Below, in pieces: positions 20,760 to 58,851 of a stretch of 64,000 nt of DNA. The notes beneath the pieces are model-generated. The model made no database searches. It was not told where the DNA came from and saw only the letters and a program-made list of their open reading frames with translations. The DNA comes from a bacterium (GTDB lineage Bacteria; Patescibacteriota; Minisyncoccia; UBA6257; WO2-44-18): NCBI GenBank assembly GCA_030646995.1, contig JAUSKF010000001.1:5700-69699 (forward strand). The letters are read 5' to 3'. Position numbers and translations under genes: made by a program. How positions within the stretch are numbered: position 1 is the first letter of the stretch; each line of letters begins with the position of its first letter.

Positions 20760-20830
20760 TTTCTATATGTCTGGTACACGTACCATCCTACACATGCCCC
20801 TATAAGGGTTATGTGTGGGACACGTCCCGA
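20760..20830 (-). promoter_or_regulatory. Promoter region carrying motif A (TCTATATGTCTGGTACACGTA) and a half-site of palindromic motif B (GGTTATGTGTGGGACACGTCCC)
   Basis: Same motifs recur upstream of other genes at fixed distances (see findings). Confidence 0.4.
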
Positions 20831-33366: not shown

Positions 33367-34060
33367 TGGCAATATTGAAAACGGAATTTGAAAAAAGCGC
33401 TTGCTCAATCTTCTGTTTTTCAGCAATCTCCCGCGTTTTATTCATTATAACATCCCACACATAACTCTTTATGTATGGGACGCCGTCTAAAGCCTGCGAA
33501 GCGCCGCCAAAATCACTGTGGAAAACATATTCTACTGAACCATTGCGAACGACAGAGAAAGTGGTGGACCGGCTTCCAATATCAACCACCAACTTACGCC
33601 CTAAGTCATTTTGAAAACGATGCGCAATTGCCGAACTTTCCAATTCCAACCGGACTAAACGCAGGGCGCACAAATCGGCGATAGCTTCATATTTTTCCGA
33701 AACCTCTTTAGGAATCGCCACAATAAAGTAACGCCCGTCATCCAACTGCGTAGCTTCCAGCCTATAAGTTGCGGGATTAGCGGGTATAAATTTCGGGTCA
33801 ACCACATCGGCAATGACGGTAAAAACATAAAAGGAAGGCAGGGACATTACCGCCGATTGCGTGCTTACGCCCATGCAAGACAAAAGATTGGTTAGCGCTC
33901 CGGCTGCATCTTCGGCATCAATTGGCCGAATGCTGGAGTGAAATGACTTAGAGGGACGCTCCAATATTCCCCAACTCAACACTTTTCCAAAGGCATTTTT
34001 TTCCAGCACCTTGATTGAACTGGTGCCGATGTCTATGCAAAGATATGACTCATCCAACAT
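33320..34060 (-). CDS. PilM-like actin-fold protein (type IV pilus assembly)
   Basis: N-terminal LCIDIGTSSIKVL phosphate-1 motif of the actin/HSP70 fold; 246 aa. The C-terminal tail overlaps the pilT upstream region, so the 3' boundary is uncertain. Confidence 0.45.
   Translation of the reverse strand: MLDESYLCIDIGTSSIKVLEKNAFGKVLSWGILERPSKSFHSSIRPIDAEDAAGALTNLLSCMGVSTQSAVMSLPSFYVFTVIADVVDPKFIPANPATYRLEATQLDDGRYFIVAIPKEVSEKYEAIADLCALRLVRLELESSAIAHRFQNDLGRKLVVDIGSRSTTFSVVRNGSVEYVFHSDFGGASQALDGVPYIKSYVWDVIMNKTREIAEKQKIEQALFSNSVFNIANGLQKISSQAFNGHS
33452..33484. promoter_or_regulatory. Palindromic motif B (ATCCCACACATAA-N4-TTATGTATGGGAC), 86-118 nt upstream of pilT
   Basis: 11 bp inverted arms; same motif at 51507-51539 and 53719-53751. 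Confidence 0.45.
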
Positions 34061-45077: not shown

Positions 45078-45174
45078 AATAAAAAAGCCTTGCGGCTCTA
45101 AGTTTATAGATTGTACTACACTTGACTTTAAAAGTCAAATGTTGGACTATCTCTGAGCGGGCAGGGGGGGGCTG

Positions 45175-45245
45175 AGCGGGTAAGGGGAATCGAACCCCTG
45201 TCTTTAGCTTGGAAAGCTAAGGTAATGCCATTATACGATACCCGC
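45175..45245 (-). tRNA. tRNA-Gly (anticodon UCC)
   Basis: Acceptor GCGGGUA/UACCCGC, anticodon stem UUAGC/GCUAA with loop UUUCCAA, T-loop UUCGAUU. A 9 nt duplicate of the 3' end (CTGAGCGGG) lies at 45153-45161. Confidence 0.75.
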
Positions 45246-45351
45246 AGTCGTCAAATCCTGTTTTCTACAATATCATACCAGCGTCTTGATTAAAGTAAAG
45301 AAATAGATAAAGTTATAGTAGCTTGCCCCTCATAGGAGGCGGGTCTGTCTT

Positions 45352-45954
45352 ATGGATAAGATTAAAACCAAGCATATTGTGACTGTAATCATGGCCACGG
45401 CACTGGTCTTAGTTTTGCGTTATGTGGTTTTTCCGGCTAAGTTTCTGCCTGGAGAATTTTCGGAGGCTCGCATCAAAGGATCCAACGTGGCGCAAAAAAT
45501 TGTGGAAATTTCCCGCGCCAATCTTGCCCTGCTGGACACAGTCGCGAAATATGACCGGGCCAGTGACCACACCGAAGCTTTGATTGCCATCTCTGCAGCG
45601 ATTATTCAAAACCAAGACAATCAAGTGGAAGCAATTCGGCTCTCCGAGCAATTAACTACAATGGCGGAGCAGATGCAAAGGATTAGACCATTGAGGGCCA
45701 AAGAAATTGCCACCGAAGCAGTGGCTTCAGAGGTTGCTTTGGTAAGCAGGCTTATCTACTACAATAGTTATTTAGCGCAACTTTTTGAAACCTTGAAAGT
45801 AAAGTTTGAAAAGCCCTGGGTTGTCTATTTAGATGGCCAGGTTAATGACTTAATCAACAAAATTAACGATGAAGCTCAAGCCATCAATGAATTGAATAAA
45901 AAATTCGTTTCTTCGATGGGCGAGTTAGACGTAATTTTTAATATCGGGGAGTAG
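45352..45954 (+). CDS. Hypothetical membrane-anchored protein
   Basis: 200 aa; AGGAGG RBS; one N-terminal TM helix. Confidence 0.4.
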   Translation: MDKIKTKHIVTVIMATALVLVLRYVVFPAKFLPGEFSEARIKGSNVAQKIVEISRANLALLDTVAKYDRASDHTEALIAISAAIIQNQDNQVEAIRLSEQLTTMAEQMQRIRPLRAKEIATEAVASEVALVSRLIYYNSYLAQLFETLKVKFEKPWVVYLDGQVNDLINKINDEAQAINELNKKFVSSMGELDVIFNIGE

Positions 45955-46051
45955 TACCTGCCTGCCCTCCATGGGCGGGTGAACCGGCAGGCAGGTACCG
46001 GCCCGATTCGCCGAAGCTTGAACGAAGCGAGTAGTGCACGTGTTTTGAAAA

Positions 46052-46122
46052 CGGGGCGTAGTATAACGGTAGTACTCAGACTTTGGGAGTCTGTAGCCTG
46101 GGTTCAATTCCCAGCGCCCCGA
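46052..46122 (+). tRNA. tRNA-Pro (anticodon UGG)
   Basis: C1:G72 acceptor (CGGGGCG/CGCCCCG), anticodon stem CAGAC/GUCUG with loop UUUGGGA, T-loop UUCAAUU. Confidence 0.75.
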
Positions 46123-46147
46123 TAAATATCGAAGTAATTTTCAAATT

Positions 46148-46219
46148 GCCCCCGTAGCTCAATGGTCAGAGCGCACGGTTTCTACCCGTTAGATGTGGGT
46201 TCGATTCCTACCGGGGGCA
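46148..46219 (+). tRNA. tRNA-Arg (anticodon UCU)
   Basis: Acceptor GCCCCCG/CGGGGGC, loop UUUCUAC, T-stem GUGGG/CCUAC with loop UUCGAUU. Confidence 0.75.
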
Positions 46220-46225
46220 CAATTT

Positions 46226-46252
46226 AAAACCAGGACTTAAGTCCTGGTTTTA
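46226..46252 (+). terminator. Intrinsic terminator
   Basis: AACCAGGACTTAAGTCCTGGTT hairpin plus TTTAAATT. Confidence 0.5.
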
Positions 46253-46268
46253 AATTCATGCTTTCCGT

Positions 46269-46408
46269 AGGAATCGAACAGCCGCACCCCGTGTTGGAAG
46301 GATTCGGAAACCAGAAGGTGTCCGATCCGCCAACTGGCGGAGGGGGTCGGGGTGCGGCGAAGGTGTTCGAGGTTGAGCAAAGCGAAACCCCTGTTCCTAC
46401 CGGGGGCA
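46269..46408 (+). repeat. tRNA-3'-associated structured repeat element, copy 2, ending in a 15 bp direct repeat of the tRNA-Arg 3' end. A third degenerate repeat lies at 46598-46613.
   Basis: Direct repeat TTCCTACCGGGGGCA at 46205-46219, 46394-46408 and 46598-46612. Internal CCGCACCCCG...CGGGGTGCGG long-range pairing and a TCCGCCAACTGGCGGA hairpin. Confidence 0.55.
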
Positions 46409-46701
46409 TATTGCTCAAACAGTTCTCTCGCATCACCAGAGCTCTTTTTGGCCAGCGCCAAAAAGGCTCTTTTCTCTCGGCAGTTCAATTTTGGTTAAAG
46501 AGATATTATAACCAAAAACCCGCTTGAACTGCCTCCGAGATATGCTGCTCAAAAACTATTTTCGCGGTTGGACGAAAGCGGGGCGACTTGTAGCCGATTC
46601 CTACCGGGGGCACTAATAAAAAACTGCGGCCTAGGCCGCAGTTTTTTACATAACCTAAGTGAATTCTTCCTCGGCATTCGCCTCGGACATTTCCGCTAGA
46701 G

Positions 46702-47463
46702 TTACTTACTCGGAAGTGAAATGGCGTTGGACTGTAACGTAACAGCCGTTTGCGCCAATGCTCTTCCGTTTAACGTTGCGCCGGTTATCATAGCAACGTT
46801 TGTTTTAGCCAGAAGATTTCCCTCAAAGTGCGAACCCGCTCCAAGGGTCACAGCACCGGCAACCTGCCAAAAAATATTCTTGGTCTGGGCGCCACCGCTT
46901 AAGAGCATCCGCTTGCCAGCGGCCATATCAAGAGTTCCCGCTATCTGGAAGATCCAGACCGCATTCGCGTCGCCTTGGGCGTCGAGCATAAGATCTGTCG
47001 GTATCGTCACAGCGGAATCCCATGTGTAAGTACCAGGGAGAAGGGTTTGACCGGTGACAGTTCCGGCCCCTACATTCAAGAAAGAACCAACTCCTGCTGG
47101 TCGCCCAGCAACATCAAGGTATACGGCTTCCATGTCGCTTACGGCCTGAGTCAGCAGTGTTGCATCTGTTGTTCTGCATGCAGGGCCAGTAGCGTCAACT
47201 GTGTATATCATCCCAGTCACTTCTACACAATCTAATCCGGTAATAGCCGCGCCCGTAATCGGACTTGTTCCGATATTGCCAGTAATCGCAGACGTAGGAA
47301 CATCAGTAATTCCGGTTTTTGATAGAATCACGAAATTACCCGCCGACAAAAGGTCAACTGAAGTCGCCGGGACAGCTGCAAACAGAGTGGTTACCCCAGC
47401 TAGACCGAGTGCCAAGGAGAAGACAGCCAAAGTTACTATTGAATTCTTATTAAACTTTTTCAT
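46702..47463 (-). CDS. DUF3494 (ice-binding-like) secreted protein, paralog of 3620..4681 without linker or sorting signal
   Basis: N-terminal signal/TM then [37 protein letters not shown], almost identical to the other copy. Confidence 0.6.
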   Translation of the reverse strand: MKKFNKNSIVTLAVFSLALGLAGVTTLFAAVPATSVDLLSAGNFVILSKTGITDVPTSAITGNIGTSPITGAAITGLDCVEVTGMIYTVDATGPACRTTDATLLTQAVSDMEAVYLDVAGRPAGVGSFLNVGAGTVTGQTLLPGTYTWDSAVTIPTDLMLDAQGDANAVWIFQIAGTLDMAAGKRMLLSGGAQTKNIFWQVAGAVTLGAGSHFEGNLLAKTNVAMITGATLNGRALAQTAVTLQSNAISLPSK

Positions 47464-47609: not shown

Positions 47610-49136
47610 CTATCGTGCCCTCTTTATTGGCAAAGAGACGCTGAAAATACAGCCCTTACTTTTATTTTTTACACTGACACTACCGCCATGGGCCTCGGCG
47701 ACCCATTTTACAATTGATAATCCTAGCCCGATGCTGTTTCCGTCAGAATTATGAGACTTATCTGCTCTATAAAATCGTTCAAACACATGAGGTAGGTCTT
47801 CTTTGGATATGCCGATTCCATCATCAGCCACGCTTATTGTAACGAATCCCTTGGACTGCTCAGCGAGAATTTCTGTATGACCGTTCTTGTTGCCATAGAG
47901 GATAGAATTTTTTATAAGATTGGTGAGCATTTTTTCCAGATACACCTTATCCCCTAAAATAATAAGGCTCGGTATCTTCCTGGCAATTATGGAGATATTT
48001 TTTTTATAAGTAATCGCCTTACATCTTCCTATGATGACCGCGATAAGAGACCTAAGATTTACTTTGTCATATACAATTCTATTTTCTAACTCCCCCTTTC
48101 TGGAAGTTATCAGGGTGAGATCCGAAAGAATACCGGAGAGATGCTTTATTTCATAGTTTATAGCCAAAAAAGCGCTCCTCAATGACTTTGGGTTTTTTGA
48201 CTTATCTAGCATAGCCAAATCCACATTGCCTTGGATTATTGCCAAAGGGGTACGGAGTTCATGGGTGGCATCCGCAATTGATGCTACTTTCAATCTTTCT
48301 TCTTCGAGGAGTCTGGCTGTCTCTTTCACCAGTTCCAGTTTCTTGCGTTCAGTTATGTCCCGTACGTTACATTGAATAACGCGCGTCTCACCGGCCATGT
48401 AAGAATTGCTCACAAACTCAACCTCAATAGACTGTCCGGATTTTGTTTCTAGTGGTAAATCCTCATAACGCAAATGACCTTCTTTTTGTAAAACTTTAAA
48501 AGCCGTCCGAGATGCTTTTGTATTTTTAAACGCCCCAACTTCCCATAATTTTTTATTTAAGAATTCACTTTTAGAATAGCCGAGTAATTTCTCTAAAAAA
48601 GGGTTTACGTCTGTTATTTGACCGGTTTGAGAATTAAGGATAAGCACTCCATCGTGGGCGGTCTCAAAAAGTCGCCGGTATCTGATTTCCGACTCTTTTA
48701 ACTTAGTTTTTATTTTATTTTGTTGCTTGGCTTTAAGCCGGAGTGTTTCTGCTGTCACAGCCAGCTTTTGTCTGACACTTTCCTTTTCCTTGGCAGTTAC
48801 CGCAAGCTGCTTGGCGGTCACCGCCAGCTTACGCCTGATACTTTCCTTTTCTGCGGCCGTCGCAGCAAGTTTACTCCTGATACTTTCCTTTTCTCGAGCA
48901 ATCGCGGCAAGCTGTTTGGCGGTTACGGCCAATTTGTCTCTGATACTTTCCTTCTCTTTAGCGATTAGGGCAAGCTGTTTGGCTTTGAGTCGGAGTGTTT
49001 CTGCTGTCACAGCCAGCTTTTGTCTGACACTTTCCTTTTCCTTGGCAGTTACCGCAAGCTGCTTGGCGGTCACCGCCAGCTTACGCCGAACATCTTCCTT
49101 TTCCTTAGCGGTTATGGCGAGTTGTTTTTTTTTCAT
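47610..49136 (-). CDS. Sensor histidine kinase (cytoplasmic; N-terminal tandem coiled-coil repeats, PAS, HisKA, HATPase)
   Basis: H-box ATHELRTPL, then N, G1 (DDGIGI) and G2 (GLGLSIV) boxes; N-terminal repeats of KLAVTAKQLAVTAKEKESVRQ. Confidence 0.8.
   Translation of the reverse strand: MKKKQLAITAKEKEDVRRKLAVTAKQLAVTAKEKESVRQKLAVTAETLRLKAKQLALIAKEKESIRDKLAVTAKQLAAIAREKESIRSKLAATAAEKESIRRKLAVTAKQLAVTAKEKESVRQKLAVTAETLRLKAKQQNKIKTKLKESEIRYRRLFETAHDGVLILNSQTGQITDVNPFLEKLLGYSKSEFLNKKLWEVGAFKNTKASRTAFKVLQKEGHLRYEDLPLETKSGQSIEVEFVSNSYMAGETRVIQCNVRDITERKKLELVKETARLLEEERLKVASIADATHELRTPLAIIQGNVDLAMLDKSKNPKSLRSAFLAINYEIKHLSGILSDLTLITSRKGELENRIVYDKVNLRSLIAVIIGRCKAITYKKNISIIARKIPSLIILGDKVYLEKMLTNLIKNSILYGNKNGHTEILAEQSKGFVTISVADDGIGISKEDLPHVFERFYRADKSHNSDGNSIGLGLSIVKWVAEAHGGSVSVKNKSKGCIFSVSLPIKRAR
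48727..49085. repeat. Intragenic direct DNA repeat (two copies of about 105 bp, near identical) in the histidine-kinase coiled-coil region
   Basis: GGCTTTAAGCCGGAGTGTTTCTGCTGTCACAGCCAGCTTTTGTCTGACACTTTCC...CACCGCCAGCTTACGCC occurs at 48727-48833 and 48979-49085. Confidence 0.65.
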
Positions 49137-49158
49137 TATATTTTCAAGACGTACCGAG

Positions 49159-49827
49159 CTACTCTTTTAGAACAAAGCCCGTGCCGCGTATTGTTTGTAT
49201 TAAAGGTTTCTTTCTATTTCCATCAATCTTCCTACGTAGGTATCTTATATGAACACTCAACTCATTATTTGTCTCCTCAAATTCAGGTCCCCAGGCATTA
49301 TCAATAAGCTTTCGTCTATTTACTGCTTCTCCATGATTAGAAAGTAGTACGTCCAAAAGCTTATACTCTTTCGGCGTAAGCGAAATAACTTTACCGGCAC
49401 GGGTAACTTCGTGCTTCTTCTTGTCCATTTCTAAATCAGCAATCTTTGTTATATCCGGATCAGTTGTTTTTCTACGACGCAACACAGCACGAATGCGAGC
49501 GAATAGTTCATTGAGGCCAAAGGGCTTTATTAGATAGTCATCAGCGCCAACATCAAGGCCGGCGACCCGTTCTTCTGTGCTACCCATCGCGGTGAGCATA
49601 ATAATGGGTGTATGAATCTGATGCTCTCTCAACTCCTTGCAGACAGCAAGGCCGTCTTTCTTCGGAAGCATGATGTCCAAAAGAATCAAAGAATAATTAT
49701 TTTTCATTGCCTTATCCAAACCTTCTTTGCCGTCATAAGCCACCTCAACGGAATAGCGTTCACTTTTTAGCGCTCTTTTCAATATACTCACCAACTTCTT
49801 TTCGTCTTCAATGATTAAAATCGACAT
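49159..49827 (-). CDS. Response regulator, OmpR/PhoB family (receiver plus winged helix)
   Basis: Receiver Asp in LILLDIMLP, conserved T (LTAMG) and K; winged-helix C-terminus LTPKEYKLL...RGTGFVL. Confidence 0.8.
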   Translation of the reverse strand: MSILIIEDEKKLVSILKRALKSERYSVEVAYDGKEGLDKAMKNNYSLILLDIMLPKKDGLAVCKELREHQIHTPIIMLTAMGSTEERVAGLDVGADDYLIKPFGLNELFARIRAVLRRRKTTDPDITKIADLEMDKKKHEVTRAGKVISLTPKEYKLLDVLLSNHGEAVNRRKLIDNAWGPEFEETNNELSVHIRYLRRKIDGNRKKPLIQTIRGTGFVLKE

Positions 49828-49942
49828 ATATTTATATATAACGCCTATCATTAAAACTTGCAAGACATATTGTTAAATTTTAATGATATATACAGCTAAG
49901 ACACACAAATAAAAAATCCCTTAGAGGTTGATCTCTAAGGGA

Positions 49943-51427
49943 TTAGGCTGCGGTTTCCAAACTGTCGAAAACCATTTTTTTGCTGTCTTCCAGAACAACC
50001 GACACGGTGTCTCCCGACTTCAGCTGCTTAGTAATCAACAGCCTGACTACCTTCAGGCGGACGTATTTCCGCACCCGCTGCTTCAACAACCGAGCCCCCC
50101 ATTCCATCCGCTTCATCGCCCGCTGAACCAAATAGTCCTTCACGGCGGGATCAATCTCGATAGTAATCTTAATTCCCTTTTCGGCAATATCCGATTTCAG
50201 CAAATTGAGCTGCAATTCAAAAATCTTGCCCATATCGGTCGTGTCCAACGGCCGGAAAACTTCGATACTGTCGAATCGGCCCAACAACGGAATCGGTAAA
50301 TCTTCATTCGCCTTTTCAAGGGCAAGCTCGTAAATATCTTCGCCGAGCTCGTTCTTGGTTTTGGGATTATTCATCTTAAATCCCAAGGCTTTGTTATTGA
50401 TGACATCGGCAATCTCTGCGCTGGCTACGTTTCCAGTGGCGATAATGATGCAGTTCTCAAAATTAACCAAAACACCATTACTCTGCTTCAGCTTCCCCTT
50501 ATCAATAATCTGATAAAGAAGATGGTGCATGTTGCGATGAGCTTTTTCCAACTCATCGAAGAGCACAATTCCTATTAAATTTTTCGGAACGTCTCCGCTG
50601 CCATCCCAATCCAATCCGTTCTCATAGTATTCCTTGTCAGTTTTTTCCAGCTTGGCTTCCAATTCTTTCAGTTCACCCTGCATCACGATTAGTTCTTGGA
50701 GAATTCTGTTGGCTTCGGCGGCTTCAGCCAAATTCTGATCACCTAGCTTTTTCCACTCGCGGTATACCTGATTCAAACCAATAAACATTTCAGCTGCTGC
50801 AGTCTTGTCTTCTTGAATCTGCTTTATAGCAACAAAAATGTCACCAAGCTGTTCTCCCAATTCATAAACCTGTTCCGTGAGCTCATTTGAAGAATTCTGC
50901 AAATCCCGATGTCGCGACATCAGGTACAAACGCTTCTTTTTAATCTCACTGATTCTATTGCTGAATACAGACCTTTCAGAAAGCATGCCGTCGTATTTTT
51001 CCTGCAACATCTCGAAATGATGCTTATAGATGTTCCAGTTAGTCAGCAACGGATGCTCGCCGGTAGGATCTTCGGGATCTTGAAAGCCTACGTACCCCGG
51101 AGGAGAACCGATTAAAGCCGCGGTTTGATGTTCTTGCGCCATCGATTCGCACTCAACCTTCAACAGCGCGTCGGGATTGTTAAAAAAGTATTTAGCCAGC
51201 TGTTCGGCGGTTTCCGTTTTTCCGGTACCCGAAGGTCCCAAAAGAAAAAAGGTTCCCATCGGCCGGCGAGGCTCCCGAAAATCCGAAAAGGCAATTTCCA
51301 AAGCGTCAGCAACCTGCTGAAGCGCGTGCTCCTGCCCAACGACATTTCCCGTCAAATGCTTCAGAATTTTTTCTGCCTCGGGACCCATTTTTGAGTCATC
51401 AAGGCGAACTCTCTTCCGCTCGCTCAT
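49943..51427 (-). CDS. AAA+ ATPase, ClpA/ClpB D2-like module with a coiled-coil domain inserted between Walker A and Walker B (HslU-like layout)
   Basis: Walker A LLGPSGTGKTE, Walker B IVLFDELEKAH, sensor-1 IIIATGN, a C-terminal small domain, and a roughly 150 aa coiled-coil insert. Confidence 0.6.
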   Translation of the reverse strand: MSERKRVRLDDSKMGPEAEKILKHLTGNVVGQEHALQQVADALEIAFSDFREPRRPMGTFFLLGPSGTGKTETAEQLAKYFFNNPDALLKVECESMAQEHQTAALIGSPPGYVGFQDPEDPTGEHPLLTNWNIYKHHFEMLQEKYDGMLSERSVFSNRISEIKKKRLYLMSRHRDLQNSSNELTEQVYELGEQLGDIFVAIKQIQEDKTAAAEMFIGLNQVYREWKKLGDQNLAEAAEANRILQELIVMQGELKELEAKLEKTDKEYYENGLDWDGSGDVPKNLIGIVLFDELEKAHRNMHHLLYQIIDKGKLKQSNGVLVNFENCIIIATGNVASAEIADVINNKALGFKMNNPKTKNELGEDIYELALEKANEDLPIPLLGRFDSIEVFRPLDTTDMGKIFELQLNLLKSDIAEKGIKITIEIDPAVKDYLVQRAMKRMEWGARLLKQRVRKYVRLKVVRLLITKQLKSGDTVSVVLEDSKKMVFDSLETAA

Positions 51428-51506
51428 GGCGCACCTCGATGATGTTTGATTTCAACGTTCTGCCTAAAGATTAGCCTAAAATATACGGGAATTGCAAGAA
51501 TAAAAA

Positions 51507-51539
51507 ATCCCACACATAATTTATGTGTGGGACGCGTCC
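51507..51539. promoter_or_regulatory. Palindromic motif B (ATCCCACACATAA-T-TTATGTGTGGGAC), 80-112 nt upstream of the AAA+ gene; also acts as a terminator hairpin for the upstream gene
   Basis: Perfect 11 bp arms, followed on the coding strand by ATTTTTTATTC. Confidence 0.45.
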
Positions 51540-51550
51540 CCGAATAACAT

Positions 51551-53641
51551 TTATTTCTTACGTTTGGCCAAAGACGCTTCCAAATTCCTCTTTCGCAGTT
51601 CGACGTCCTTGCTAATCAAGGCCAGAGCTTCGGTGCCACGATCGAAATACTCAATCGTAAAGCGCGTCAGCAAACCGCACTCGCTGTGAGTAATCGAGTA
51701 AACGATGAATCCGACATCAGAAAGCTTTCCTAGACCGGTGATGAAGTTAGTCTTTCCCTGCAAACAAGGCATCATAATAAAAATGATTCCCTTGTAAAGC
51801 ATAGAGCAGTACACGTGACCGCCACCGGAAAGCAGGGAGAAAATTTTACCGCGATACTGCGAGGCCTTCTTTCTGGAGGCCGTCTTCTCGATCTCTTTCA
51901 GCATGCCCTCGGCAACCTGTTGCGGCTTATAGGATTTAGCGTAACCGGTTCCCCAATTGAAGTGCCGAAGCCAGGTGATGATCCGGCCGTTGCACTCCTC
52001 GCCCTGCTGAACACCAAGATATTTGATGTCCGCGCGAATCTTCGCAAGCGGGTCCAAAAGGTCATAACCGTTGCGATCCTGGAACCATCGGTCGTGATCA
52101 CCGCTAATCATCAACGTCACAATGCCCTTACGATAGGGGTACAAAGAGATGGCGTCGTTCGTCAGCGGAGTGGCGCGATATTCACGCACTTCCCGATTAT
52201 GGTGCTCTTCATGTTTATCAGGACCGTTGGTGATGTCACCGCAATGAAACACGGTATCAATTTTCTGCTCCTCAAAATAGTCGTAAGCGGCATGGCAAAT
52301 CTCCAAAAGTTCGGAGTTGTGCCCGATGTGAGTATCCGAAACCCCACCACGCGTGATAGTGGTATGAAAATAGTCCTTGAAATCAATCTTGCAAGCCTTG
52401 AAACGGACTCGCGAGTTGATCTGAAGTTGATAGTTCTTCGACGGGTTTTCCGGATTGTCCGGCTCGCAGATATCGAATCCGACGCTCTGCAATTTAGAGA
52501 TCAAGGACTTAACCGAAGCATCGCTACGATCCATTGCCTGCGTCAGCTCACCGAGTGTCTTTGGGGATTTCTCCAACAGCGCCAAAATCTTCTTACCATC
52601 AACAGTCAGACCCTCCGTAATGGACTTATCGTCAGAAAATTTTTCACGATAATCATCTTTGATTGCCGGGAGCGGGTAAACCGCTTTTTGGACGGAGAAC
52701 TCGCCTTCTTTGGTGAACCGGATGGTGAGAATCACCAGTCCGATAGTCGGCACCACCGAGCGACGCTGCTTCCTCATCAATGACTTCGGGGCCGTGCGCA
52801 GACCGGGAATAGAAATCAACGTCGGGATAATGCCACCCGAGAGGTCACAGAAGATACCCTGTCCGGCGACTGCCACAATGTCAGGCAAATCTTCGGAGTA
52901 AATATCTTTTACATCTTGAACAAGGTTTTCGGCAAATCCCTGAACGGGATAAGACTTGGAATAAGGCGAGGAATCGCCTCCATGGTAAGCAACCTTCAAA
53001 ACCGGCCAACGCACGCCCTTTTCAGGACCACGCCGCAACGGGAAATCAGCCTGCGAATCACCGCGATAAACAAGATCATCGCGCTCCGTGCAAACTTCCG
53101 CCAAGATATTCCGGCTGTCTTTCCGCCACAACATATCATGGTGTCCGGAAATGAAACGGGTCTTGAACTTCTTCGAGCGAGGGTAGTTTTGAACAATATA
53201 CTGCACCTGATCATCCACCGTCGTCTTATGAAATTCATCACTGTTCATGCGCGTAGGCTTACCAGCCGAAACACCGGCATGAATCATAAAATCCACTCCT
53301 TCGTTTTCTGCAATCTGAAAAGCATGGCAGAGATTCGTCGGCTGTTCGGATTTGCTACCCAATAGCGTGTCAGAAATCAGACCAACTTTCACTTCAAAAT
53401 CCTTGATTACCATATCCTCGGGAGACGCCTCAATCGGCGTTTTGCCAAGATAAAAAGTGTCCTCATGCTTCACCACAAAGACTCCCTTGTCGTGAAGTTT
53501 CTGAGCCATTTCGACGATACCATTCGCCGATTTGTCCAAAGCAGAGGACATTTTCTTGATGTGGCAGGGGCCGGCTTTCAACATATCCAGCATTTTCTGC
53601 TCTACGGTATTCAACTCGGGAACAGTCTTCTTCGACGCCAT
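51551..53641 (-). CDS. Tandem calcineurin-like metallophosphoesterase protein (two phosphoesterase domains; start set at the internal Met)
   Basis: Two GDxHG/GDxxDRG-type motif sets (GLISDTLLG...MIHAGV and GVSDTHIGHN...FHCGDITNGPD); about 696 aa. Confidence 0.5.
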   Translation of the reverse strand: MASKKTVPELNTVEQKMLDMLKAGPCHIKKMSSALDKSANGIVEMAQKLHDKGVFVVKHEDTFYLGKTPIEASPEDMVIKDFEVKVGLISDTLLGSKSEQPTNLCHAFQIAENEGVDFMIHAGVSAGKPTRMNSDEFHKTTVDDQVQYIVQNYPRSKKFKTRFISGHHDMLWRKDSRNILAEVCTERDDLVYRGDSQADFPLRRGPEKGVRWPVLKVAYHGGDSSPYSKSYPVQGFAENLVQDVKDIYSEDLPDIVAVAGQGIFCDLSGGIIPTLISIPGLRTAPKSLMRKQRRSVVPTIGLVILTIRFTKEGEFSVQKAVYPLPAIKDDYREKFSDDKSITEGLTVDGKKILALLEKSPKTLGELTQAMDRSDASVKSLISKLQSVGFDICEPDNPENPSKNYQLQINSRVRFKACKIDFKDYFHTTITRGGVSDTHIGHNSELLEICHAAYDYFEEQKIDTVFHCGDITNGPDKHEEHHNREVREYRATPLTNDAISLYPYRKGIVTLMISGDHDRWFQDRNGYDLLDPLAKIRADIKYLGVQQGEECNGRIITWLRHFNWGTGYAKSYKPQQVAEGMLKEIEKTASRKKASQYRGKIFSLLSGGGHVYCSMLYKGIIFIMMPCLQGKTNFITGLGKLSDVGFIVYSITHSECGLLTRFTIEYFDRGTEALALISKDVELRKRNLEASLAKRKK

Positions 53642-53718
53642 CAGCTTTCTCCTTAAGAAATTAAGTTGTAAATGAACACAATCACTATATGGCAATGCCC
53701 TGAAAATATCAATCATCA

Positions 53719-53751
53719 AATCCCACACATAATTTCTTATGTATGGGACAC
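53719..53751. promoter_or_regulatory. Palindromic motif B (ATCCCACACATAA-TTTC-TTATGTATGGGAC) between divergent genes
   Basis: 78-110 nt upstream of the phosphoesterase gene and 83 nt upstream of the small winged-helix gene. Confidence 0.45.
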
Positions 53752-53833
53752 GAATTTGATTATTTCCCCTCGAAAGAATTATGCTTAAGTTAGTCTGGTT
53801 TCCGAGGGATTACAAGAAAAGAGGAGGCCAGTA

Positions 53834-54028
53834 TTGAACAAGAAATACCTCCGGCAGAAGATACTTCGCCTCGTGATGAGTTGGCCGGAAAGAAATGAGT
53901 TCCTGACAGTATCAGAGATAGCAAAAAGGCTGAAAATTCCCAAAGAAGGCGCGGCTAAAATTATCTTTGAGTTATTCGGCAAAAAGAAGCTGGAAATCTA
54001 CGGGCAGCTAGTTATAAAACCTCGCTAA
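53834..54028 (+). CDS. Small winged-helix DNA-binding protein (putative regulator; TTG start)
   Basis: 64 aa; GAGGAGG RBS; LTVSEIAKRLKIPKEGAAKIIFEL HTH-like. Confidence 0.4.
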   Translation: MNKKYLRQKILRLVMSWPERNEFLTVSEIAKRLKIPKEGAAKIIFELFGKKKLEIYGQLVIKPR

Positions 54029-54030
54029 GC

Positions 54031-54300
54031 CCCCTATTCCCACATGATCTCCGCAGCGATGCGGAGATTTTTTATTTAGTACGAGGCTTTGAGGACGCAG
54101 ATGTAGACTCTACTTCCAGTCCGAGAAACGAAGTAATAAATAATAAAATCCCGCATCCCAGAGGGTTGTGGTTAAAATTCTTTATTTCTATGTCGTCGAA
54201 CAATAGGCATAGAGTCTATGCCTCATTATTCTCCTCCTCGAAATAAAGAATTTTTCCTCACAACGCTGCTGAAGCTTATGTGGGAATAGGGGGCAACACG
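54031..54300. repeat. About 270 bp long-hairpin MITE-like element with perfect 17 bp terminal inverted repeats
   Basis: GCCCCCTATTCCCACAT pairs with ATGTGGGAATAGGGGGC; inner arms GGTTGTGGTTAAAATTCTTTATTTC/GAAATAAAGAATTTTTCCTCACAAC. The left end contains the repeated terminator module. Confidence 0.5.
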
Positions 54301-54328
54301 GGGCTTTTTATATAGTGAGCTTGCCGAA

Positions 54329-57744: not shown

Positions 57745-58851
57745 TTACCGTTCGCTAATCACAACGCCAACCCTCTCAACCGCCTGGACTGTATTACCAG
57801 ATTGGTCATACCAACTCAATCCTCTAGGCGCTGGTATTAAAATTAGAGTCCTCGGACGAGCTGTGAGTGCCTTCAGGACGACGCATAAAATAAACTTATC
57901 TCGATTCTTCTTTGAGTATGCATATTCGTTCGGAGTAAGTTCAATATTGATGCGGTCGCCCTTCGAACCTTTGACCTCGATATGAAGCTGGCGGCCACTC
58001 ACCGATGTAGCTCGAACATCATAGCCAATCTTTTTTAGACTCACGTCCTCAACTAAATAGCCTCTATGCCTATAGGCCTCCATAACGCACTCCATTGCCC
58101 GCTTTTCAATTTCCATTCTCTCTTTGGTGTCCTGAATCCAACCGCCACGCCCCGCACTAAAGGCTCCTTTGCGCGACTTCGCCTGGCGGCTTGAGAATTC
58201 CCCGGCCTTAATAACCTTTAGAACACGCTCGTTGGTTAATTCGTTGCCGTACCAAAAGGGGCTTTGGCCGGGTTTTCCTTGTCGAGTGTTACCACTAATC
58301 GGTAACGCCGGGCGCTCGCCGGGCGCCAGCAACTTCGAGGAAGCCACTAGAGACTCGACGGTAAATTCACAAACATCGCCGCTATTTGTCGTCCGGTTCT
58401 TTGCCGGGGATCCTTCAGGTTTCTGCCGCTTGGCCCATACGCGAGCCCCATTAGACCATCCGACGATGACTCTCCCGCCCAAATATCGATGAGTAGCAAA
58501 CCATATAACGGTCACCCCGTCCAAATACATAGCGTCTAAACCGGCGCCAAGCCTACTCAGGTCGGGGTTCTTGCCGCCTGGCGCGTGACCGAAATATTTT
58601 GTGCCATAAGGTTTAAAATTAAACTGAGTATGATCGTTGAGAGGCTCATCTCTCGTGTACTTAAATTTTCCATACGGCATGTCATCATCCGAAGCACCTT
58701 GGTAACGCTCCATCCAGGGTATATTAATATATAAAATAGGAGCTTCTTTCATTAGTACATTGTAACGTATAATAGTGCCCACCTCATGCCACTTAGTCAC
58801 CTCGATATCTCCTAACTGGCGGGGCGGTATCAGCTTAGACCAATGGGACAC
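57745..58851 (-). CDS. Hypothetical protein with a C-terminal PD-(D/E)xK (restriction-endonuclease-like, DUF3883-like) domain
   Basis: C-terminal GYDV...(D)...IEVKGSKG fits the D-x(n)-E-x-K nuclease motif; N-terminal 230 aa unknown; GTG start. Confidence 0.35.
   Translation of the reverse strand: MSHWSKLIPPRQLGDIEVTKWHEVGTIIRYNVLMKEAPILYINIPWMERYQGASDDDMPYGKFKYTRDEPLNDHTQFNFKPYGTKYFGHAPGGKNPDLSRLGAGLDAMYLDGVTVIWFATHRYLGGRVIVGWSNGARVWAKRQKPEGSPAKNRTTNSGDVCEFTVESLVASSKLLAPGERPALPISGNTRQGKPGQSPFWYGNELTNERVLKVIKAGEFSSRQAKSRKGAFSAGRGGWIQDTKERMEIEKRAMECVMEAYRHRGYLVEDVSLKKIGYDVRATSVSGRQLHIEVKGSKGDRINIELTPNEYAYSKKNRDKFILCVVLKALTARPRTLILIPAPRGLSWYDQSGNTVQAVERVGVVISER

Follow-up and report, generated by a model that had tools for sequence, protein, structure and literature searches.

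Which of five adjacent genes belong together, and what might they do together? The question arises at positions 47,610 to 54,028 of a 64,000-nucleotide stretch (the window) of a patescibacterial genome (contig JAUSKF010000001.1, positions 5,700 to 69,699, GenBank assembly GCA_030646995.1), where an earlier reading of the letters and their open reading frames, made with no database searches (the sequence-only reading), had grouped a histidine kinase (HK), its response regulator (RR), an AAA+ ATPase (hereafter AAA+), a metallophosphoesterase (MPE, for gene and protein alike) and a small winged helix-turn-helix (wHTH) protein into one candidate system. All five open reading frames are present where that reading had placed them and carry the domains it had assigned, and none has a named housekeeping equivalog, every NCBIfam match being far under its cut-off. 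When compared with related loci on other contigs (L-numbers below), however, the conserved unit comprises three genes: the small, divergently transcribed wHTH gene, a duplicated wHTH–MPE gene and a Clp-D2-type AAA+ gene. Our tentative reading is that the module pairs a pseudo-dimeric phosphodiesterase directed at DNA with an unfoldase, probably coupled to ClpP, that is an optional partner, the small wHTH regulating the divergent promoters; this is the reading we favour, without going so far as to call it probable.

The order wHTH (divergent), MPE, AAA+, p200 (reverse) and BipA is found in L006/L011, L007/L008, L009 and L218/L219, in each of which the AAA+ gene directly abuts that for p200. Immediately upstream of AAA+ is an MPE or MPE-like gene in the window, in L006/L011, L009 and L154, in the Harrisonbacteria loci L010/L139, whose AAA+ is only 29% identical, and in L020/L156, whose MPE is 30% identical and whose AAA+ has a fused N-terminal extension of ~318 aa. 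The upstream gene of L007/L008/L218/L219, which encodes 662–670 aa, belongs to the MPE family by profile only, as it is unalignable to MPE by BLASTP and is matched by hhalign (96.6%, 521 columns); BipA and LemA of L007/L218 are each 92% identical to those of the window despite the replaced MPE gene. In L023, too, the gene upstream of AAA+ matches MPE by hhalign (91%). Because profile comparison identifies MPE-family proteins at this position, the MPE slot is kept though its occupant has been replaced. The pairing of ATPase and phosphoesterase that the sequence-only reading had seen in a single genome is therefore real and recurs across related loci.

Such recurrence could be coincidental, with AAA+ a general Clp chaperone or protease subunit and MPE a BirA- or NrtR-like small-molecule phosphodiesterase and transcription factor, the two sharing inherited synteny and no coupling. 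The whole region is syntenic anyway in the closest relatives, MPE and AAA+ have their own terminators and promoters, MPE is solitary in most genomes, and the wHTH domains of its relatives match HTH_11 (BirA-like), with the JGI name ‘biotin operon repressor/predicted phosphodiesterase’. This account is weakened by the recurrence of the adjacency in deep branches (MPE 30% and AAA+ 29% identical, AAA+ with a fused N-domain, the tandem AAA+ genes of L023). The adjacency moreover outlasts replacement of the MPE by a distant homologue, and the AAA+ family is small, its members almost always lying beside an MPE-like gene. We regard mere coincidence as improbable, if worth keeping in view. The dependence that we observe is one-sided: AAA+ depends on an MPE-like neighbour, which is nearly always present, and MPE does not depend on AAA+. 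The near-obligate placement of AAA+ beside a nuclease-like phosphoesterase points to a dedicated client or co-worker.

The same comparison separates the kinase and the regulator from the module. Were all five genes a single unit for signalling or defence, the ATPase and the phosphoesterase would be under the control of the PAS kinase and OmpR-type regulator, as might be suspected from genes that are adjacent and co-oriented in the window, with a palindrome upstream of the RR gene. HK and RR are, however, missing beside MPE and AAA+ in every related locus; the only matches, generic ones of 26–40% identity, lie 7–10 kb off in L016. Moreover, AAA+ directly abuts p200–BipA in L006, L007 and L218, and the HK–RR pair occurs within ~3.9 kb that are found only in this genome and have tRNA genes at their bounds. 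Of the neighbourhood conservation that the sequence-only reading had proposed as a check, the wHTH–MPE–AAA+ part thus holds and the HK/RR part does not, and a five-gene unit is very hard to credit. Because no related locus has the kinase or the regulator near the module, we consider the two-component system a lineage-specific neighbour.

Each domain of the module belongs to a known superfamily. The MPE had been described as a protein of roughly 700 aa with two calcineurin-like domains, which holds with two refinements: its start is the ATG at 53641, behind AAGGAG, giving 696 aa (not 725), as in the NCBI protein and every homologue, and only the second of its sites is intact. The protein is an internal duplication (N-half against C-half, 25% identity, E = 6 × 10−12) laid out as wHTH1 (residues 12–65), MPE1 (83–323), wHTH2 (347–406), MPE2 (427–667) and a C-terminal helix, an order reproduced in the AlphaFold2 (AF2) model (predicted local distance difference test (pLDDT) 88, predicted template modelling score 0.87); that each MPE domain is preceded by a wHTH is new relative to the earlier description. 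MPE2 carries the motifs of the calcineurin-like superfamily (DxH, GDxxD, GNH[DE], H, GHxH; two metals), with D436, H438, D469, H516 (in GDHD), H560 and H609 invariant in 33 homologues. Aligned to MPE2, MPE1 reads DTL for DTH in motif I and GV for GD in motif II, the family consensus being IADTxLGS and HLGVSAG. Having lost the His of motif I and the bridging Asp of motif II, MPE1 fails the motif test of the superfamily, which leaves the pseudo-dimer a single predicted active site.

As to what that site acts on, no match to MPE was found among PDB sequences, and PolD DP1 is the top-ranked Foldseek match in the PDB (E = 1 × 10−8), followed by purple acid phosphatase, Mre11 and SbcD. The best phage protein in BFVD reaches E = 1 × 10−19, some of the best viral models are annotated ‘DNA polymerase II small subunit’, and the family matches PHROG 7339, ‘DNA repair exonuclease’. 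A profile search over 1.84 billion representatives returned 2980 MPE relatives (971 at E ≤ 1 × 10−30), a minority of which are full-length double proteins and most of which are single wHTH–MPE units of 280–430 aa. The single units are frequent on IMG/VR viral contigs, where one stands first in a phage replication module that also encodes DnaB, primase, HNH and QueD/QueE; for most of the phage neighbours, PHROG annotation gave little information. The wHTH domains, the order of the fold matches and the occurrence in a phage replication module lead us to infer that MPE is a DNA- or nucleic-acid-directed phosphodiesterase or nuclease, whose wHTH domains would hold the substrate.

The AAA+ is, as had been proposed, a standalone Clp D2 module with an HslU-like inserted coiled coil. 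Pfam finds AAA_2, split in two pieces, followed by ClpB_D2-small; the best PDB match is nucleotide-binding domain 2 (NBD2) of ClpB (E = 9 × 10−47), which leaves query residues 118–284 unaligned; and Foldseek returns ClpC–ClpP complexes (E ~1 × 10−22). Every element of a Clp/Hsp100 D2-type module is found (Walker A and B, GYVG, arginine finger, sensor-2 GAR and D2-small), and Walker A G64–T71, the pore loop GSPPGYVGF (Y112), Walker B D291/E292, N333, R384 and sensor-2 G444-A445-R446 do not vary among 14 family members. With all motor motifs intact, AAA+ is therefore predicted to be a hexameric polypeptide translocase. The unaligned insertion, 73–169 aa long across the family, is modelled by AF2 (pLDDT 85.7) as an antiparallel hairpin of helices 146–203 and 208–269, ~60 residues each. 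It lies between the GYVG pore loop and Walker B, where the I-domain of HslU sits.

Beyond sensor-1, the tripeptide L348-G349-F350, overlooked in the sequence-only reading, aligns column for column with the LGF of three ClpC proteins, a position at which Thermus thermophilus ClpB has a gap. Of the 18 family members with sequence across the loop, 16 keep the motif as [LIMV]-G-[FI], and the loop is disordered in the model (residues 347–351, pLDDT < 50). ClpX, ClpA and ClpC are established to dock onto ClpP through a [LIV]-G-[FL] surface loop in this place. The ClpC-type LGF loop thus leads us to predict ClpP coupling: AAA+ is probably a ClpP-coupled unfoldase, with clpP elsewhere in the genome.

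Two variants of the AAA+ architecture were seen in passing. In L023 (8001–10496), two AAA+ paralogues stand in tandem after the MPE-like gene, the second of which is without a pore loop, has a degenerate Walker B (FDHIED) and is probably an inactive partner subunit. In L020 (6046–8220) and L156 (8171–10366), the fused ~318-aa N-terminal region has no Pfam match and the coiled-coil insert is short (~73 aa), such that the N-terminal region may take over the coiled-coil role.

How does this module compare with known systems? The D2 rings of ClpC and ClpB are the best sequence and fold matches of AAA+ and share its D2 motifs, and ClpC shares the LGF loop. Whereas ClpB, ClpC and ClpA proper have two rings (D1 and D2), an N-domain and, in ClpB and ClpC, a D1 M-domain, AAA+ has a single ring and none of these; aligned with ClpC, it lacks the entire stretch of N-domain, D1 and M-domain, which sets it apart from class 1 Hsp100 proteins. 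It also differs from ClpB and ClpC in bearing the coiled-coil hairpin within the D2 large subdomain, and its NCBIfam scores stay far under the cut-offs of the Clp equivalogs (ClpB, for example, 184 against 1232 bits). HslU shares the plan of a single-ring unfoldase with a domain inserted between pore loop and Walker B, but it is absent from the PDB and NCBIfam matches of AAA+, which does not classify with the HslU family; the insertion here is a simple two-helix hairpin, and AAA+ has a ClpP-type LGF loop, which HslU lacks. No HslV was found by tblastn in the window or in the AAA+ loci.

A different likeness is to Mre11–Rad50/SbcCD, in which an MPE nuclease-fold dimer (here a one-chain pseudo-dimer) is likewise encoded beside an ATPase with an antiparallel coiled coil between Walker A and Walker B, and Mre11 and SbcD are among the top fold matches of MPE (E ~4 × 10−6). 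The partner here is, however, an AAA+ and not an ABC/SMC ATPase, and its coiled coil has only ~60 residues per arm and, because there are no cysteines at the apex (residues 203–208), no zinc hook. MPE motif III is GDHD, the wHTH precedes the MPE domain whereas the capping domain of Mre11 and SbcD follows it, and MPE usually occurs without the ATPase, so that the resemblance to Mre11/SbcD is one of fold. PolD DP1 is the best PDB structural match to the MPE domain, and phage proteins resembling the ‘DNA polymerase II small subunit’ are the best annotated phage match; MPE differs in having a wHTH in place of the OB domain and TM-scores of only ~0.4, and with no DP2-like gene in its neighbourhood it is not assignable to DP1. 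In the literature we found no description of a single-ring D2 unfoldase with an inserted coiled coil and a ClpP loop, of a (wHTH–MPE)x2 pseudo-dimer, or of MPE/AAA+ linkage.

The nearest two-gene arrangement is Dodola (DolA/DolB), which includes the ClpB-like DolB (PMC11514479), and Dodola and PDC-M37 share with the module a short ClpB-D2-like ATPase paired with one partner gene. This raises the possibility of an anti-phage or conflict module, in which a ClpB-like ATPase would work with a nuclease effector and the wHTH would act as repressor. AAA+ matches the PADLOC models PDC-M37B (E = 1.5 × 10−25) and DolB (E = 8 × 10−21), single-unit relatives of MPE are abundant on viral contigs, and in near relatives the MPE gene has been swapped in place for a very distant homologue. 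AAA+ (46–54% identity) and wHTH (48–56%) also evolve far faster than the flanking BipA, LemA, TPM and p200 (77–92%), the slot between LemA–TPM and p200–BipA holds variable cargo, and L218 has a type ISP restriction enzyme and a HEPN gene within a few kb. The PADLOC matches, however, span the generic Clp ATPase core only; MPE has no PADLOC match, the partner is a wHTH–MPE and not DolA (matched by none of the five proteins), and AAA+ accompanies MPE on no viral contig. Double-MPE proteins are 50–80% identical across candidate phyla and their genes are mostly solitary.

Nor is the setting one of defence, which the sequence-only reading had proposed to check: all module neighbourhoods examined are housekeeping rather than defence islands, with no recognised defence gene adjacent and with BipA, LemA, MsrB, LigA, iPGM, YceG, PCMT, the dnaK operon and L10/L12 as neighbours. 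Solitary double-MPE genes, similarly, are found after hrcA-grpE-dnaK-dnaJ and near L10/L12, LigA, iPGM, IMPDH and PCMT–YceG. On balance, defence is an unlikely function for the module. The order MPE, then AAA+ or a 198-aa gene, PCMT and YceG is shared by L005, L020 and L156, and because MPE–PCMT–YceG is kept across MPE clades that are only ~30% identical, it suggests an old chromosomal position for MPE.

The slot adjacent to LemA, just outside the module, is the part of the region that does look like a defence hotspot. The 368-aa protein encoded beside LemA in the window (57745–58851, reverse strand) resembles the PADLOC models HmaA and TmtA in their C-terminal domains (best E = 5.5 × 10−16), and the syntenic slot of L218 (15114–18742) holds a faint HEPN_AbiU2 match and a type ISP restriction enzyme of 1039 aa.

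For the module itself we return to the phosphodiesterase with an optional unfoldase partner. Six coiled-coil hairpins would project above the entrance of the AAA+ pore in the fashion of the HslU I-domain, and the LGF loops would most likely dock onto a ClpP encoded elsewhere. The coiled-coil crown would recognise either MPE itself or the protein–DNA complexes at which MPE works, and AAA+ would unfold the recognised targets, probably handing them to ClpP; the outcome would be that a potentially dangerous nuclease is limited, or that protein blocks ahead of the nuclease are cleared. A stronger version, in which wHTH–MPE and coiled-coil AAA+ form one physical machine, either an AAA+-based analogue of Mre11–Rad50/SbcCD or a new branch of Clp proteases with a nuclease-dedicated crown, strikes us as a long shot.

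Several observations weigh against the optional-partner reading. The fold matches of MPE are generic for its superfamily (TM ~0.4 to DP1) and do not prove a nucleic-acid substrate, and fusions of HTH domains to enzymes can also be metabolite-sensing regulators. By tblastn, no ClpP is encoded in the 64-kb window or in 10 AAA+ loci, the rest of the genomes lying outside this search; the lack of a nearby protease noted in the sequence-only reading therefore stands, although it weighs less than was assumed there, as AAA+ has the ClpC-type LGF loop. A strong terminator separates MPE from AAA+ in the window, so the two are not strictly co-transcribed. Most double-MPE genes have no AAA+ within 2–10 kb, the extent of the available flanks (L001–L005, L012–L014, L016, L018, L140–L148, L151, L155, L157, L160 and L161), which implies that MPE works without AAA+. 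Finally, the AAA+ loci L024 and L025 have no detectable MPE-like neighbour, the proteins encoded upstream (648 aa in L024, 893 aa in L025) resembling neither the MPE profile nor Pfam Metallophos; because of these, the statement that AAA+ is always paired has two exceptions or undetected cases.

The transcriptional layout of the module (Table 1) shows that strong intrinsic terminators end each of the three genes, so that MPE, AAA+ and wHTH are adjacent transcription units and not one operon. The small wHTH protein reaches only sub-threshold Pfam matches, yet it is conserved: an open reading frame 48–56% identical occupies the same divergent position in L006/L011, L007/L008 and L009, and the family consists of 3 clusters only, each adjoining MPE-like and AAA+ genes. 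It is probably the local transcriptional regulator of the divergent promoters. An origin as a detached copy of the MPE's own wHTH was considered and rejected (hhalign 3%).

The palindromes that the sequence-only reading had placed before the last three genes are real at 51507–51533 and 53721–53748, and a promoter-like site (TTGATA-17-TATAGT, 53712–53684, reverse strand) is found on the MPE side of the divergent region. As a conserved operator of the module, however, the palindrome was rejected: the motif also occurs at 20809–20830 and 33453–33480 and is absent from all related loci compared, and it is a dispersed repeat specific to this genome. The motif, a compound palindrome of the form GGGACGYGTCCCAYACATAA...TTATGTGTGGGA, is seen at these sites in intergenic regions between co-directional genes, with 12 matches at ≤2 mismatches against 4.6 expected, and may be an element resembling repetitive extragenic palindromes or miniature inverted-repeat transposable elements, or a genome-specific terminator or insulator. 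Between wHTH and MsrB (54008–54315) lie two long imperfect inverted repeats (43-nt arms, 74% complementary; 40-nt arms, 73%), which may be a small mobile-element remnant. Rfam returned tRNAs only.

Table 1. Positions in the window of the module genes, their domains and signals, and the neighbouring two-component genes
Feature	Position	Strand	Basis or remark
64-aa HTH protein, divergent from the MPE gene	53834..54028	+	Sub-threshold Pfam HTH (DnaD_N, PF0610-like_N)
Intrinsic terminator of the wHTH gene	54046..54069	+	10-bp stem then T-run
Palindrome TCCCACACATAA-N4-TTATGTATGGGA in the divergent wHTH/MPE promoter region	53721..53748	.	Abuts −35-like box
696-aa pseudo-dimeric metallophosphoesterase (MPE)	51551..53641	-	Pfam, AF2, half-to-half alignment
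First MPE domain, catalytically degenerate	52673..53395	-	Aligned to domain 2
Second MPE domain, intact dinuclear-metal site	51641..52363	-	Pfam Metallophos matches this half only
Intrinsic terminator of the MPE gene, a perfect palindrome between the MPE and AAA+ genes	51507..51533	-	12-bp stem then TTTTTTATT, T-run
494-aa single-ring Clp/Hsp100 D2-type AAA+ ATPase	49943..51427	-	Pfam, PDB, NCBIfam, Foldseek
Coiled-coil hairpin insertion, residues 118–284, between pore loop and Walker B	50576..51076	-	No ClpB NBD2 counterpart
L348-G349-F350, predicted ClpP-docking tripeptide in flexible loop	50378..50386	-	Alignment to ClpC
Intrinsic terminator of the AAA+ gene	49915..49944	-	12-bp stem then T-run
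OmpR/PhoB-type response regulator, REC + Trans_reg_C	49159..49827	-	Pfam; outside the conserved module
PAS histidine kinase, cytoplasmic, N-terminal 21-aa repeat array	47610..49136	-	Outside the conserved module

The two-component genes that lie beyond the AAA+ terminator are as the sequence-only reading had described them, apart from their membership in the system. The kinase has PAS, HisKA and HATPase_c domains by Pfam and no transmembrane or hydrophobic segment (maximum Kyte–Doolittle 19-mer 1.08). Its first ~145 aa are 21-aa repeats, heptad-like and coiled-coil, and in the array (48724–49103) a 128-nt segment is present twice, 252 nt apart; because the two copies are 94% identical, the in-frame expansion is very recent. 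The regulator has REC and Trans_reg_C domains, probably starts at the ATG at 49827 and is separated from the kinase by 22 nt, the pair being an OmpR/PhoB-type two-component system in one operon; neither protein reaches any NCBIfam equivalog cut-off. Just 5′ of the regulator start, a 14-nt inverted repeat (TATCATTAAAACTT/AAATTTTAATGATA, 49846–49888) may be autoregulatory.

In the window, the ~3.9 kb between AAA+ and p200 consist of tRNA-Pro, tRNA-Arg, an ice-binding-like gene, the kinase and the regulator. At 45174–47463, this insertion is bounded by tRNA-Gly, tRNA-Pro and tRNA-Arg, and its ice-binding-like protein has 253 aa, a hydrophobic N-terminus and a match to PF11999 (E = 1.7 × 10−64). 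The PAS kinase and OmpR-type regulator would thus be an independent two-component system, inserted in this lineage with the ice-binding-like gene and the tRNAs. That a neighbouring two-component system proved to be a lineage-specific insertion rather than the regulator of the module is a caution against calling ‘systems’ from one genome.

Only a few architectures are known among the Clp/Hsp100 unfoldases, which are textbook machines, and AAA+ would add to these a single D2-type ring that joins an HslU-like inserted coiled coil to a ClpC-like ClpP loop. The (wHTH–MPE)x2 protein belongs to a large unannotated family of ~3000 clusters at 50% identity. Phages commonly carry its single-unit members, for which no function is known, and one defined activity would annotate the whole family. 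If the physical machine, improbable as we rate it, were real, ATP-driven unfolding would strip proteins from DNA ends or blocked DNA so that MPE can cut, and the machine would stand in for the canonical end-processing complexes in some Patescibacteria and their phages.

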